This document shows, in pieces, positions 12,001 through 18,000 of a stretch of 50,880 bases of DNA. This stretch comes from a virus, in the UHGV virus genome UHGV-0174141, one strand, 5' to 3'. A program made the position numbers. The first letter of the stretch is position 1, and every line of letters starts with the position of its first letter.

Positions 12001-15000
12001 ATATCACTGCGGCATTTCCTGAAACCAAACCGGTAACAGTGAAGAGCGCTGTTCATCGCCTGTACTACGACGGGGAACTTGCCAGCGTTGAAGTTACTGG
12101 TGGGTTTATCTACTTCGTAGCGGGATCCATCGATATTGAAGAGTACCTGCCTGGTGGGCTTTCGGGGGAGATTCTTGCCCTTGAAGCGACAGCCAAAAAG
12201 CTGGAAGAGAAACGCTATTACCGCCGTGCGGCGACGGTATGGCAGCAACTTTGTGACAGCAACTGTACGGCTAAAGCAAGAGAGCGGTACCTGCGTCTTA
12301 AGAATGCTTCTGTTCGAAACGCCAGAAACATGAATGATTCCGCCGGGTCATGCTATCTGGCCGGAAATTACTGCGGAGGTGACTTGTGCTCCGATTGAAG
12401 AAGATTTTGATAAGTCTCCGGCGCCTTGTGCGTTTGCATCACTGGCGTTACTGGTGGCAGCACGACGTTATTTTTCGCAGAAAATATGCACTCCTCAGAA
12501 ATGACCTTTTCAGCTTTGATCGCCGTGACTGGTTACTGAGAGCACTTGTTGATGCTGATCAGCGCAGGGGAAAACTATGAGTCAGGAAGTACAAGAAGCT
12601 ATGACCGCAGAAGAGCAAACTTTAACAAAAACCGTCAGCCCTTATTGCCTGGCACTTGAGGAACAGCGCCAGCGTAGTGCGCATTATTTAAAAGAAGTCG
12701 GGGATCAATGGCGTACCCCTGATCTGCTGTTCTGGGGCGTTAACGCTATGTTTGGCCCGCTGGTACTGGACCTGTTTGCAGACGACAGCAATACAAAATG
12801 TCCGGCATGGTATACCGCTGAAGATAATGCGCTGACGCAGGACTGGTCTGGTCGTTTGGTAGAACTCGGAGGAGCGGCCTTTGCTAATCCGCCGTACAGC
12901 CGTTCGCAGTACCATGAAAAACAAGCCATCACTGGCATGACTCATATTATGAACTATACCGCCGAGCAGCGTGAAAAGGGTGGTCGTTACATTTACCTCG
13001 TGAAGTCAGCAACAAGTGAAACATGGTGGCCGGAATATGCCGATCACATCATGTTTATTCGTGGTCGTATTGGATTCGATCTCCCAACGTGGTTTGTGCC
13101 GGCCGACGAAAAGCAGAAGCCCACCAGCGCATTCTTTGCCGGGGCCATTGCGGTATTTGATAAGACCTGGCGCGGTGAACATTTTAGCTATATCGATCGC
13201 GTTGAGCTGGAAGCAAAAGGGCGCGCAAGTATGGCGCTGGCTGAGTTTGCTGCAGGAAAATTCCTGTCACCAGTTTCGCCAGTTCAGTCTCCTGAAGTGA
13301 TCATCCCCGATGCTGTTGCATCATTGGCTGAGCCTGAATCCCGGATCTGGCCACTGGAAGTTGGACTCGTCTTTGGACAGGTACAAGGCGCAGAGGATCT
13401 GGAGTTCTCCCAGCAGAACAAGCTGAAGGCCCACATTAACCAGTTGTGGCTGGAGCGCGTGCCCACCAGCGAAATCATCACCGTTGCTGGTGGGCTGGTC
13501 GGCAGCATGAGGGGGACCGCTCATGCGTGAGATTATTGTCGATAATTTTGCTGGTGGCGGTGGCGCCAGTACAGGTATTGAGCTGGCGATAGGGCGTAGC
13601 GTTGATATCGCGATTAACCACGATGTTAACGCCGTTGCTATGCACCGCACTAACCATCCCGACACGCTTCACTATTGCGAAAGTGTGTTTGATGTATCCC
13701 CATTAGCCGCTACCAGTGGCAAGCCTGTCGGCCTGGCATGGTTCTCGCCTGACTGTCGTCACTTTTCTAAAGCGAAAGGTGCTAAACCAGTAGAGAAAGC
13801 TATTCGAGGGCTGGCATGGATCGTCATTCGTTGGGCGCTGGATGTTGGCCCGCGAGTCATGATGCTGGAAAACGTCGAAGAGTTTAAAACGTGGGGTCCG
13901 TTACTCGCGGCAGAAATGCGACCGGATCCGGCACGCATCGGTGAAACTTTCAATGCATTTGTCGGGATGCTTACCACCGGTATTCCAGCAGATCATCCTG
14001 CACTGGTGGAGTGTTGCGAGTTTCTGGAGTTTTCACCGGATAGCGAGCAGGCCAAGCGCTTAATTGCCGGGCTGGGTTATGTCGTCGATTTTCGCGAGCT
14101 GCGCGCCTGCGATTATGGCGCGCCGACCATCCGTAAGCGGTTCTTCATGGTGATGCGCCGGGACGGGAAACCGATAGTCTGGCCGGAAGCCACGCACGGG
14201 GATCCGAAGTCTGCCGCCGTGCTGGCGGGCCAGCTTGAGCCGTGGCGTACAGCTGCGGAATGCATAGACTGGTCAATCCCAGCGCCGAGCATCTTCGGTC
14301 GCAAAAAGTCACTGGCAGAGAATACGCTAAAACGGATTGCCCGCGGCATTCAGCGCTTTGTTATCGAAAGTGCTTCGCCATTCATCGTGAAGTGCAATCA
14401 CACAACGACACGTGGCAAATATGACTGTTTCCGGGGACAGGCGCTGGACGATCCGCTACAGACGATTACGAAAACCCACGGCTACGCAATTGCGGTACCT
14501 CATCTGACAAAATTCCGAACCGGAGCTACCGGGCAGGAAGTCACCGATCCGTTGCCGACGGTGACGGCCGGTACCGCAAAACGCCCGGGCGGGAATGGTC
14601 ACGCTATGGGTATTGTTGAAGCAGAGCTGGCTCCGTTCCTGGCTGGCAATGGCGGCAGCGAGTACCAGGCTAAACCACGCCCGCTCGATAAACCCGCTCA
14701 CACCATCCTGAAAGAGTCACGAGCTTGTGTTGTTGCGCCGGTCATCGCTCGTCAGTTTGGCGCCAGCGTCGGACACCGTGCCGATGAACCAAGCGCAACA
14801 ATCACCGCGGGCGGCGGCGGTAAATCGCAGCTGGTTGTGCCGACGCTCATTCAAATGGGATACGGAGAACGGCCCGGCCAGGCTCCTCGCGTGCCAGGAC
14901 TGGATAAGCCGCTAGGAACTGTTGTGGCTGGTGGTGGGAAACATGCCGTAGTTGGTGCGTTCCTGGCAAAACACTACGGTGGGAATTATCAGGGCGCCGG

Positions 15001-18000
15001 CGTGGGGCTGGATGAGCCAGCGCATTCAGTAACGACTGTCGATCACCACGCATTAGTCGCTTCTCATCTGGTTAAACTGCGCGGTACTTGCCGTGACGGC
15101 CAGACTACTGACGAGCCGATGCCGACTATCACTGCTGGCGGCCAGCACGTGGGGGAGGTTAAAACGACCCTGGCGGTCGAGGACTACGACGAAGAGCGCG
15201 CGCAGCAGGTGCTGGCGTTCCTGCAGGAATACTGCGGGAAGGATAGCACCGGACTGGTGGAAATTGGCGGGGTGACTTACCGAATCGTTGATATCGGCAT
15301 GCGCATGCTGCAGCCGCACGAGCTCTACCGGGCGCAGGGCTTTCCGGAGTGGTACATCATTGACCAGGATTACCGCGGCGTGAAATACGCGAAAGATAAG
15401 CAGGTCGCGCGCTGTGGCAATGCCGTCCCGCCGCCGTTCGCCGAAGCGCTGGTACGCGCCAACTTACCCGAAATGTGCGTGAACAGAGAGGAGCAGGCAG
15501 CATGACTTCCTTGACCTTAAGGCAGCAGGAGGTCCTGGACCTCCTGATCGAATATCAGCGTAAACATGGTTTTCCGCCTACAACTTACGAACTGACCGGT
15601 ATGCTGGGGTGCCGGTCCCCCAATGCAGCAGCAACGCACCTCAAGGCGCTGGAGAGAAAAGGGGCCATCAAGATTACCCGCGGGGTTTCTCGCGGTATCA
15701 GTATCACCCCTTCGCTGTTGGCCAGAGAAATATCGGTCAATCTCAACAGCATCGTAAAAGTGAAACTTAATGAAGTCTCCCTCAGACATTTGGAAAAACA
15801 ACACGAGCAGAATCGAATCCAGCACCCGAGGATCTTCGGGGACCTTTCGCCCCCGGTAACAGACGAAAATGGCTATACGTCAATGACCCTGTGGAGCCTT
15901 ATGTCTGACCTTGGCCCGCTCTGCTATTGCGGAGGAGATGTTCCGTTTGAGTTGAAGATAGTGCTGGAGGCTGAATGAAATTTATTCTTCCATTCCCACC
16001 CAGCGTGAACACCTACTGGCGGTCCCCAAATAAGGGGCCCTCAAAAGGTAAACACCTTGTCAGCGCAGCCGGCCGTAAATTCAAACATGCAGTACGGTCA
16101 GCGATCATTGAGCAACTGCGTGCAATACCAAAACCATCTACCGCGCCAGCAGCTGTAGAAATTATTCTCTATCCGCCAGACTATCGCCGGCGTGACCTGG
16201 ACAATTACAACAAGGCACTTCTTGATGCTTTGACTTATGCCGGTATCTGGGAGGACGACAACCAGGTTAAGCGTATGGCTATTGAATGGGGTGAAATCGT
16301 CGAAGGAGGTAGGGTAGAAATCACCATAGTCTGCTATCAAAAAGTGGTGGATACATGTACAGCTGTGGGTTGAAAGTTCGCCGATATGGCAGTAATGTCA
16401 AAGAGTGCAAACGAAACGGGCGTGCAGGCCCTTCGTCACATAAAAATGTATGGAGAAAGCTATGACTAACCACGTCATGGGTGCTGCTGCATCCAATAAT
16501 CACACTTTTTTTGTTATTGATGGTATTTCTGTTCGTCGTGATGTCCTTGGTCGTTATTGCCTAAACGATCTCCATCGTGCTTCCGGCTCCCTTGACCGCC
16601 ATAAGCCTGCATTCTGGCTCCGTAACGAACAAACTGCGCAATTGATAGGCGAGTTGCAAAATAGCAACTCGGATATTTCAGAACCTGTAAGTGTCATCCG
16701 CGGCGGAAATGAGCAAGGTACCTATGTTTGCCGTGAGTTGGTGTATGCCTACGCGATGTGGATCAGCGCTGTTTTTAATCTGAAGGTCATCAGAACGTTT
16801 GACGCGCTCCACACTGCTGGGGCTGCAACCGTCAATACCGATCGCATTCAGGCTGGCATAATCCTCCTGGAATCTGCAGCCAAAATGCTCAATCTCTCTA
16901 ATTCGTCAAAGCTCGGGGCATATCAGAAGCTTCAGCAGGTAGCAGGGCTGCCTGATTTAATGCCTTCATATGCCATTGATGCACCAGCTGGCGCGCAGGA
17001 TGGTTCCAGCAGACCAACGCTGTCTCTTAGCGCTTTGCTTAAAGCTAACAACATCAGAATGACCGCGAACCAGGCTTATCACCTTATGGCTGGTCACGGC
17101 ATAGTCGAGCAGAAGGAGCGCCGCAGCCGAACGGGTATCAATGGCGTGAAAAGATTCTGGTCTGTTACGGCAAGAGGTTGTCTGTACGGTAAAAACATCA
17201 CCAGCCCGGCAAATCCACGTGAGACGCAACCGCACTTCTTCGAATCGAAATTTCCTGAGCTTTTAAAGCTCATTGGCGTTGTCACGCAGTAAGGGGTGAA
17301 CATGAGAATGACTCCCCCACACCTGCAACCAGTGCTTTCCAGGGTAAAGCGTTTTGTAGAGAGGCAACCAGAAGGCGCAACGCTAACCCACCTGACGCAC
17401 AAAGTGGCGGCATACAGTGGGCTCAATCGCAAAGAAAAAGAGACCCTGATCGAAATAATCCGGGAAAGCGGGATGCTCTGCGTGATAGATGATGGAAGGT
17501 CTACTACCTTGCACCACCCGAAATATGGTCACAAATCTGTGGCGCCTGTAATGACACCTCCTCAGCCGACGATGGAATGCAAAATGAATAAACAACTCGA
17601 AGTAACTCCGGAAGCATTACGTAAACAGGCTGACGCCTTGATCAAAGCGGCAGAGGAAGCGGAGAAAAAAGCCGGGGATCGTGCAGAAATTAAGAAACAG
17701 CTCGATCCCTTGAAGTTGGAGATTCTCCAGGCATATGGAATGGCCAGCAGGAAGTTTGACGAGTTCGTAGATGCTATGGCTGAAGTTGGTAAAGCCGTGC
17801 AGAAGCTTAAAGATCTGACTGTTTAGGGGGGATTGTGCGAGCATTGCTTACTCCGGAAATTGTGCCGCGCCTGGGCGTTGTTCTTTTCAAACCAGGCCGC
17901 GAATTGATGTCTCTCTTTACCGGCGGCCGTGTCCTGATAGAGCGTCAGCCAGAGAAGATGAAAACACTGCCCACTGGGCGGATCGCCGATGCACGTCAGC

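Follow-up and report, generated by a model that had tools for sequence, protein, structure and literature searches.

The window analysed here is the whole 50,880-nucleotide (nt) stretch of the viral genome UHGV-0174141, a lambdoid Klebsiella prophage (with integrase, CI, CII, replication and Q genes). Our subject is a pair of overlapping DNA methyltransferase genes in it, a Dam-like adenine methyltransferase gene followed by a C5-cytosine methyltransferase gene whose product carries seven repeated modules in its variable region. The initial annotation had described the two genes as a tandem; both open reading frames (ORFs) lie at exactly the coordinates it gave, and profile scores confirm both identities. 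The features of the pair are as follows, where positions are those of the window, amino acid residues (aa) are those of the encoded enzyme, HMM stands for hidden Markov model and pLDDT for the predicted local distance difference test score.

12577-13530, + strand: gene of a phage Dam-family N6-adenine DNA methyltransferase, 317 aa (ORF, PF05869, TIGR01712)
13509-13530, + strand: junction of the Dam-like and C5 genes, with the Shine-Dalgarno sequence GAGGGGGA at 13509-13516, ATG at 13523-13525 and TGA at 13528-13530
13523-15505, + strand: gene of a C5-cytosine DNA methyltransferase, 660 aa (PF00145, fold match)
13523-14155, + strand: catalytic part 1 of the C5 enzyme, aa 1-211, with motifs I, IV, VI and VIII (pLDDT >90)
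13547-13564, + strand: motif I, F9-AGGGG14 (phmmer alignment)
13745-13768, + strand: motif IV, S75-PDCRHFS82, with catalytic Cys78 (phmmer alignment)
13868-13876, + strand: motif VI, E116-N-V118 (phmmer alignment)
14120-14152, + strand: motif VIII, A200-PTIRKRFFMV210 (phmmer alignment)
14156-14437, + strand: variable region, conserved first part before the array, aa 212-305 (alignment; pLDDT 82-98 to about aa 280)
14438-14533, + strand: module 1, core DPLQTITKTHGYAIAV, aa 306-337 (unit HMM at 306-333, 36.5 bits)
14534-14677, + strand: module 2, core DPLPTVTAGTAKRPGGNGHAMGIV, with a long tip, aa 338-385 (unit HMM)
14678-14773, + strand: module 3, core KPAHTILKESRACVVA, aa 386-417 (unit HMM)
14774-14893, + strand: module 4, core EPSATITAGGGGKSQLVV, aa 418-457, type 203 (unit HMM)
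14894-15001, + strand: module 5, core KPLGTVVAGGGKHAVVGAFLAKHY, aa 458-493 (unit HMM, 35.5 bits)
15002-15100, + strand: module 6, core EPAHSVTTVDHHALVASHLVKLRG, aa 494-526 (unit HMM, 38.1 bits)
15101-15181, + strand: module 7, core EPMPTITAGGQHVGEVKTTLAV, aa 527-553 (unit HMM; pLDDT about 66-75)
15182-15505, + strand: C-terminal part, with a helix and beta-hairpin at aa 554-593 and motifs IX and X (alignments, AlphaFold)
15302-15346, + strand: motif IX, R594-MLQPHELYRAQGFP, ending at P608 (alignments to 3g7u and DNMT1)
15416-15436, + strand: motif X, G632-NAVPPP638 (alignments to 3g7u and DNMT1)

The C5 enzyme scores 69 bits against PF00145 (cutoff 22), with the match spread over three stretches; against TIGR00675 it scores 45, which is below the cutoff of 100.65 because of the long insertion in the protein. 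Foldseek searches with the predicted model gave a probability of 1.0 to 3g7u, DNMT1, M.HhaI and M.HaeIII (class I, C5-type fold). The catalytic motifs were placed from phmmer alignments with DNMT1 and with 3g7u, an enzyme of prophage CP-933R. The window enzyme shares its catalytic fold and motif order with the monospecific bacterial enzymes M.HhaI and M.HaeIII and with 3g7u, and with 3g7u also the motif VIII variant APTIRxR, whereas motif IV is P-D-C in the window enzyme and P-P-C in 3g7u. The many generic fold and sequence matches also included 8yf3; we considered a CmoX-type carboxymethyl transfer on this account and rejected it, as the match has nothing specific about it.

The residue ahead of the catalytic Cys in C5 methyltransferases is normally Pro, and the Asp in P76-D77-C78 is an oddity. 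In 82 family members, residues G11, G13, G14, P76, C78, S82, E116, N117, V118, T202, R204 and R206 are invariant and D77 is nearly so. Since P-D-C is kept throughout the family together with all the other catalytic residues, the alignment suggests a functional family variant rather than decay. The gene itself is intact, with no frameshifts and no stops. The exact protein occurs on 43 contigs of Klebsiella and Raoultella, where it is named just "DNA cytosine methyltransferase", and its 90%-identity cluster holds 1123 member sequences. Judged from its sequence, the C5 enzyme is an active-looking orphan methyltransferase.

The initial annotation had listed seven repeats in this enzyme, and all seven peptides are present. 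They have the form [DEK]-P-x-x-[TS]-[IV]-x and start at aa 310, 342, 390, 422, 462, 498 and 531, the last one ending at aa 537. The repeats were expected in the variable target-recognition region, and that is where they lie: all seven modules (aa 306-553) fall between motif VIII (200-210) and motif IX (594-608), a region that spans 381 aa here and about 146 aa in 3g7u. The spacing had been given as about 25-35 aa, a figure that roughly fits the gaps between the motifs (23-39 aa); measured from start to start, the distances are 32, 48, 32, 40, 36 and 33 aa.

A chance or compositional effect of a linker rich in Gly, Thr and Pro might be suspected behind the repeat, given the abundance of G, T, A and P in the region, a motif that is both short and degenerate, and a search pattern defined after the sequence had been viewed. 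With the post hoc pattern [DEK]P..[TS][IV][TLV], none of 20,000 shuffles of the C5 protein had more than two occurrences. Aligned in pairs, the seven 34-aa units had a mean local score of 34.4, compared with 17.6 ± 0.85 (maximum 19.9) for shuffled controls, a distance of about 20 standard deviations. The unit HMM recovered all seven modules with i-E-values from 1e-11 to 2e-4, and 1044 such units were found in 151 homologues. These results refute the chance explanation, to which we assign a practically negligible probability. At the DNA level, no direct or tandem repeats that could be candidates for slippage or phase variation were found in 14300-15350; the repeat is visible only in the protein, which means that the units are old and diverged and not recent duplications.

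The behaviour of the modules was followed in 151 proteins, comprising the window protein and 150 representatives at 50% identity, with 1044 modules in all. The family to which they belong is very large: 8253 representative clusters have E<=1e-3, and at E<=1e-30 there are 2560 clusters at 50% identity. It is found in phages of Klebsiella, Citrobacter, Aeromonas, Vibrio, Pseudomonas, Rhodobacter and Caulobacter, with distant members in Gordonia, Mycobacterium and Arthrobacter phages. The best 150 proteins are about 470 to 1113 aa long. A member of the family carries 1 to 12 modules, usually 5-8, and the minimal period is 32-33 aa.

The consensus of the module is Q-P-L-D-E-P-L-P-T-V-T-A-G-G-G-H-A-L-V-V-P-A-L-L-K-F-R-G, and three elements can be distinguished in it: a constant anchor, P-x-x-T-[IV]-T, then a tip of some 5-10 residues that differs from type to type, and a hydrophobic strand, (H)-A-L-V. 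Positions 18-20 belong to this strand. Pro6 is conserved in 98% and Thr9 in 95% of the units, and positions 10-11 are mostly [VI]-T. Positions 13-17, which follow T-x-T-A, show the greatest variability overall (3.0-3.5 bits) and yet the strongest conservation inside a type (0.66-0.89 bits), whereas the linker positions 1-5 vary both across and within types. By these conservation values, the short tip defines the module type and is under purifying selection, as expected of a specificity loop.

Average-linkage clustering resolved about 285 module types, told apart by the residues after T-x-T. For 99.9% of modules the nearest relative lies in another protein, with an identity of 63%, as against 33% within the same protein. 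The same type occurs twice in one protein in only 4 of the 151 proteins, and all 151 architectures are distinct.

The seven modules of the window protein belong to seven different types, each common to a different subset of proteins. Module 1 (type 165) is shared with 6 other proteins and stands first every time, module 2 (type 181) is found in 7 others at ordinal positions 1, 2, 6 and 8, and module 3 (type 123) has only one other representative, the fragment P0121, which is 89% identical to the window protein. Module 5 is of type 274, the commonest internal type, which occurs in 44 other proteins at ordinal positions 2-8; its sequence is up to 89% identical in proteins that are only about 55-60% identical overall. 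Module 7 was clustered as a type of its own (type 261).

The C-terminal end of the array is fixed in the family as a whole: in 47 of 64 cases, type 263 (consensus deP.pTvtAgG.H.aEVRAFL.KYY) is followed by type 26 (consensus EPlhTittkdRfGLVtv.Ge.Y.I) and then by the end of the array at motif IX. On our reading, module 7 of the window protein resembles the penultimate framework type 263, and in the place of the usual last module the window protein has the helix and hairpin at aa 554-593. In P0263, which at 472 aa is the shortest full-length member, the pair of types 263 and 26 makes up the whole array. The last one or two modules occupy a fixed framework position throughout the family and are perhaps structural.

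Close relatives of the enzyme allow the gain and loss of modules to be seen directly. We compared 121 clusters from Klebsiella and Raoultella, consisting of the 120 best matches (85-98% identity) and the window protein. Eight modules, with a module Nb inserted after module 6 and before module 7 (the order 1-2-3-4-5-6-Nb-7 or a close variant of it), are present in 109 of the 121 clusters, and in five others an alternative cassette, Na, occupies the Nb slot of an eight-module array. The form found in the window, 1-2-3-4-5-6-7, occurs in six clusters, and in one (P0108) module 5 is absent and Na is present. An extra module, Nb or Na, therefore follows module 6 in 115 of the 121 relatives (the eight-module forms and P0108), and the window carries the seven-module minority form of a mostly eight-module enzyme. 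Within the eight-module forms there are further alternative alleles, Nc in the slot of module 5 and Ne in that of module 6, and natural 6-, 7- and 8-module forms and cassette alleles are common in genomes.

The breakpoints of these insertions and deletions are located in the shared H-A-L-V strand, so that each event takes out one tip and joins the neighbouring strands. A comparable principle is seen in the HsdS subunits of Type I systems, where specificity cassettes are swapped at conserved flanks, the flank in the window family being the "ALV" strand; however, HsdS is an unrelated family, and its two domains act jointly on a bipartite site rather than as a chain of alternatives. The modular behaviour supposed by the initial annotation is in this way borne out: whole modules are gained, lost and swapped in near-identical relatives and assort freely across the family.

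Two explanations of the array have to be compared at this point, independent specificity elements and structural repeats. In the second, beta-hairpin repeats would form one extended recognition domain of a single specificity (long, composite or relaxed), or would read sub-sites of one target; we regard this as a serious though rather unlikely alternative. The regular minimal period, the invariant P...T anchor and the hydrophobic strand are what is found in solenoid repeats, and solenoid proteins likewise tolerate variation in repeat number. The framework modules at the C-terminus are fixed, the minimal full-length member consists of just those two, and the order of types is mostly kept, with 160 type pairs always in the same order and 31 pairs in both orders.

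The internal modules speak against this explanation. The number of different neighbours of internal types is nearly as large as the number of their occurrences; type 274, for example, occurs 46 times and has 29 different partners on its upstream side and 31 on its downstream side. To this are added the large number of tip-defined types, each strongly conserved internally, the near absence of duplicated types within a protein, and the alternative cassettes in the same slot of close relatives. Free assortment, type diversity, non-duplication and cassette replacement are better explained by independent specificity elements than by a repeat with an architectural role alone, and are compatible with the reading of sub-sites.

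Structural models were obtained with AlphaFold2 from an 82-sequence alignment of the window C5 protein. The catalytic core is predicted with pLDDT >90 both in this protein and in P0263. Helices are predicted at 266-281 and 557-571 and strands at 578-595, and the strand halves of modules 6 and 7 form one sheet with the C-terminal hairpin (E511-518, E543-552 and E578-595), the only part of the recognition region predicted with moderate confidence (pLDDT about 66-83); this sheet is again in line with an extended domain.

The closest known parallels to the array are the Bacillus phage enzymes M.SPRI, M.Phi3TI, M.Rho11sI, M.H2I and M.SPBetaI, together with M.BssHII. The sequences of M.SPRI, M.Rho11sI, M.H2I and M.Phi3TI were taken from the original GenBank records. 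Between motifs VIII and IX, these four enzymes have T-[LI]-[TS] elements at intervals of 30-48 aa (SPTITT, SHTLSA, ATTLTS, SPTLTT), and all four finish with a common element, EPAFTVNTIDRHGVA, right before motif IX, also noted as EPAFTVNTIDRHG. Reportedly, the Trautner laboratory found that the last element is part of the GGCC recognition domain that all four enzymes share, and that the upstream elements are additional recognition domains or pseudo-domains.

The likeness to the window enzyme lies in the general plan: a single catalytic core with tandem T-[LIV]-[TS] elements between motifs VIII and IX, spaced at 30-48 aa in the Bacillus enzymes and at 32-48 aa in the window enzyme, in a phage-borne enzyme that has no partner restriction enzyme. 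The last element before motif IX, EPAFTVNTIDRHG in the Bacillus enzymes, has its counterpart in EPlhTittkdRfGLV, the fixed last module of the window family, and related Bacillus enzymes, like the relatives of the window enzyme, vary by insertion, deletion and swapping of modules. The differences are in detail and in range. The anchor is P-x-x-T-[IV]-T in the window family and [SA]-[PT]-T-L-T in Bacillus; the window enzyme has 7 modules and the family up to 12, whereas 2-4 elements are recognisable in the Bacillus enzymes; the window family belongs to phages of Proteobacteria and Actinobacteria; and the catalytic cores of the window and Bacillus enzymes hardly align by BLASTP.

The best BLASTP segment between the window enzyme and M.Rho11sI aligns module 6, DEPAHSVTTVDHHALVASHLVKLR, with DEPAFTVNTIDRHGVAIGEYPKYR (42% over 24 aa, E 0.006), and the best matches in M.Rho11sI always fall on DEPAFTVNTIDRHG. 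A family C-terminal profile (last module, motifs IX and X) aligned by hhalign with residues 415-491 of M.Rho11sI at E 6e-5 and a probability of 64%, and the unit HMM gave only scores below 0 on the four Bacillus enzymes. The architectural analogy is thus strong, and homology of the modules to the Bacillus domains is, at the level of sequence comparison, unproven. The recognition loop of M.HhaI, T250-L-S-A-Y-G-G-G, seems to resemble module tips such as T-I-T-A-G-G-G-G.

Multispecificity of the Bacillus enzymes has been proven experimentally (PMC8936443, PMC12707154), and is proposed for the window enzyme by analogy with their layout. According to a 2025 review, Bacillus temperate phages counter many restriction systems by means of several recognition domains in one polypeptide, and the review cites only Bacillus phages for such arrays (PMC12707154).

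We propose that the C5 enzyme is a multispecific orphan methyltransferase with many recognition domains, which would serve the self-protection of the phage during lytic growth; this is the best supported of the readings, and we hold the chances for and against it to be evenly balanced. The variable region of the enzyme would have grown into a row of seven different modules, each 32-48 aa long and resembling a target-recognition element, and one catalytic domain would work with alternative modules, so that more than one unrelated target would be methylated, by analogy with the Bacillus phage enzymes. The enzyme would be expressed from the early or replication operon along with the Dam-family adenine methyltransferase, and the three methyltransferases of the prophage (the third is described below) would together methylate the phage DNA in advance, as it replicates, to guard it against several restriction systems of the host. 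Free assortment, the non-redundancy of types, tip-specific conservation and cassette replacement favour this multispecific proposal; that the tips read DNA, that single modules act autonomously and that the role is one of anti-restriction is what we infer.

A number of observations weigh against the proposal. The last two module positions are fixed throughout the family, so that those at least are perhaps scaffold. As most members have 5-8 modules, autonomy would make 5-8 specificities the norm, above any characterised enzyme; such an implausibly large number, like the fixed framework modules and the short period, speaks against a simple rule of one motif per module. AlphaFold2 predicts aa 288-510 of the window protein with pLDDT <50, with the alignment in register for six of the seven modules, and the recognition region 292-404 of the two-module protein P0263 also has pLDDT <50. 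A profile of 84 diverse modules gave no methyltransferase match among all PDB sequences. Resemblance to recognition domains that were defined by experiment is confined to short, weak matches, and the hhalign match of the unit profile to M.Rho11sI, at the same site as the BLASTP match, has an E-value of 0.005 and a probability of only 7%. Bacillus recognition domains measure about 40 aa, and the minimal module period of 32-33 aa is below this. The Bacillus enzymes are said to carry inactive pseudo-domains, as Lange et al. reportedly described in Nature in 1991. Finally, the literature yielded no description of this C5 family, its repeats or its specificity, or of 5-methylcytosine enzymes of Klebsiella prophages.

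With regard to the low pLDDT of the array, misalignment was considered as a cause and rejected in view of the alignment register. The region may become ordered only on DNA, or the mixing of non-orthologous module types may blur the alignment signal. As models, the AlphaFold predictions neither support nor refute the autonomy of the modules.

The pseudo-domains and the unstructured prediction for aa 288-510 also bear on a further possibility, that the array is mostly vestigial. Recognition would then be due to the framework module or modules alone, the upstream modules being inactive pseudo-domains or a flexible spacer that serves some purpose besides the reading of DNA, for instance protein interaction, or the enzyme would be inactive. 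It is in keeping with this possibility that M.Rho11sI and M.H2I contain a near-copy of the CCGG-type module of M.SPRI, and that motif IV of the window enzyme reads P-D-C where most C5 enzymes have P-C. We consider a vestigial array quite improbable in view of the strong conservation of tips within types, which includes the internal ones, the high identity of module 5 in otherwise divergent proteins, the absence of frameshifts and stops in a gene whose product is spread over a large cluster and many contigs, and the persistence of P-D-C throughout the family alongside all the other catalytic residues.

A stronger form of the multispecific proposal would have all seven modules autonomous, so that one enzyme would methylate up to seven unrelated motifs, above any characterised methyltransferase (M.BssHII, for comparison, has five specificities); or the hairpins might read consecutive sub-sites of one long programmable target. 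We think it unlikely that either of these holds.

To our knowledge, tandem recognition domains in one cytosine methyltransferase are known experimentally from only a handful of Bacillus phage enzymes, and we know of no structure that reveals how several recognition domains share one catalytic domain. Tandem recognition domains as such are thus no surprise in principle, and the protein itself is common in databases under a generic name. If the modules work as in Bacillus, multi-domain recognition would be widespread in phages of Proteobacteria and Actinobacteria, with up to 12 modules per enzyme. If every module is autonomous, the family would be a natural combinatorial library, reshuffled by phages as a "master key" against host restriction, and would amount to a dictionary linking short peptide tips to DNA words. 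If the modules are structural, the enzyme would be an ordinary phage methyltransferase whose recognition domain happens to be unusually long.

The natural variants with 6, 7 and 8 modules, which are about 85-98% identical to the window protein, would make the assignment of modules to motifs simple. A map of this kind would aid the prediction of phage host range with respect to restriction systems, which is relevant for Klebsiella phage therapy, as well as the annotation of generic "DNA cytosine methyltransferase" entries and the engineering of methyltransferases with chosen targets.

The first gene of the pair belongs to the phage Dam family, known from the phage T1 and Shiga-toxin phage VT2 types. 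Its product scores 146 bits against PF05869 (cutoff 28.1), covering aa 36-216, and 187 bits against the TIGR01712 phage_N6A_met equivalog (cutoff 97). The likeness to the family consists in these scores, far above both curated cutoffs, and in the NPPY motif, read as FANPPYS in the translation; the window enzyme differs from the family in bearing an extra C-terminal domain of about 100 aa. Characterised members of the family methylate GATC. The non-specific Hia5/Hin1523 type was considered for this gene and rejected, as the gene is of the PF05869 type with NPPY; the Hia5 group belongs to the classical Dam/DpnM lineage with the motif DPPY (PMC3299994).

The C-terminal extension (aa 217-317, 13225-13527) lies outside the Pfam domain, is conserved and has a PHROG of its own, 16025. 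In the 460-aa Dam-like relative P0273, the tail is retained and a large insertion stands ahead of it. The 460-aa proteins of the same 90% cluster, named "phage N-6-adenine-methyltransferase", were examined as possible Dam-C5 fusions; they are a longer Dam-like protein and no fusion. In other phages, the Dam domain is fused with a PAPS-reductase-like protein (PHROG 33262).

AGGGGA precedes the ATG of the Dam-like gene at 12577. The Dam-like and C5 ORFs overlap by 8 nt, the sequence ATGCGTGA, and the junction reads GAGGGGGACCGCTC-ATG-CG-TGA. The initial annotation had concluded from this overlap that the two genes are co-expressed. The overlap is real; however, it is typical of this operon, and since the next two junctions overlap as well, by ATGA (C5/LexA-like at 15502-15505 and LexA-like/RusA at 15975-15978), it represents ordinary operon coupling and nothing special.

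The genes around the pair are the following.

1-1179, - strand: integrase
9177-9809, - strand: CI-like repressor
between the CI-like repressor and the replication gene: CII-like gene
11032-11943: replication gene
11940-12398, + strand: PerC-like activator (weak PerC-type similarity; PHROG 1324 "transcriptional activator")
15502-15978, + strand: protein with a LexA-type DNA-binding domain (PF01726, 72 bits, from residue 10 of a GTG-initiated ORF)
17835-18890, + strand: DUF968 protein with an HNH-like C-terminus (PHROG 96 "HNH endonuclease", DUF968)
18891-19739: antiterminator Q
20291-21370, + strand: third methyltransferase, beta-class N6/N4, 359 aa (PF01555, 141 bits, cutoff 26.7)
21813-22238, + strand: TerB-like ORF of 141 aa with a weak match to a tellurite-resistance domain

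Between the PerC-like gene and the methyltransferase pair, about 180 nt 3' of it, there is a single small ORF, which is unannotated. Downstream of the C5 gene the order is LexA-like, RusA, KilA-N protein, DUF968/HNH, Q, beta-class methyltransferase and TerB-like ORF. The ATG of the LexA-like gene (15502) overlaps the C5 stop as ATGA, and its product may be a regulator of the methyltransferase cassette. PHROG 29443 matches both the LexA-like protein and the N-terminal 155 aa of the C5 enzyme, which would fit a fusion or adjacency of the two in other phages. The DUF968/HNH gene we take to be a common gene of the lambdoid nin region and not a restriction enzyme. The TerB-like ORF is probably a moron gene, and the ORFs further downstream of it include three of more than 1,000 aa.

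The third methyltransferase carries DPPY near aa 35 and FAGSGS near aa 310 (permuted order), and its relatives in the PDB are M.RsrI, CcrM and M.MboIIA. The 221 positions of PF01555 span residues 29-340, which leaves about 90 extra residues between the DPPY and FxGxG halves. The gene begins about 550 nt 3' of antiterminator Q, and its place downstream of Q suggests late expression. No restriction-enzyme domain was found in the genes scanned from about 9.2 to 22.8 kb, that is, round all three methyltransferases. With the third gene confirmed by PF01555 and no recognisable restriction gene in this interval, the count of three orphan methyltransferases in the initial annotation stands.

The best DNA matches of the window are Klebsiella phages (Kp4866-6, 93% identity), and no near-identical DNA was found in complete E. 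coli genomes. Citrobacter phage phiNP has the layout rep / N6A-methyltransferase / C5 / Q / Q / methyltransferase; its two genes homologous to the window pair, at 2627-3508 and 3501-5228 of the phiNP stretch compared, likewise share 8 nt, and its last methyltransferase, annotated as "dam", matches the third methyltransferase of the window in position and is 84% identical to it. In Pseudomonas phage F116 the order is LexA-like / methyltransferase / long C5 / methyltransferase, with 4-nt overlaps, and the first methyltransferase there is not homologous to the Dam-like gene of the window. We count this setting, a phage in which no restriction gene was found and whose layout recurs in phiNP and has an analogue in F116, in favour of the proposed mechanism.

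A tblastn search of the phage collection with the catalytic core of M.SPRI matched 114 Klebsiella phage records, all at less than 60% identity; by these matches, a second, classical type of C5 methyltransferase is common in Klebsiella phages besides the long modular family.

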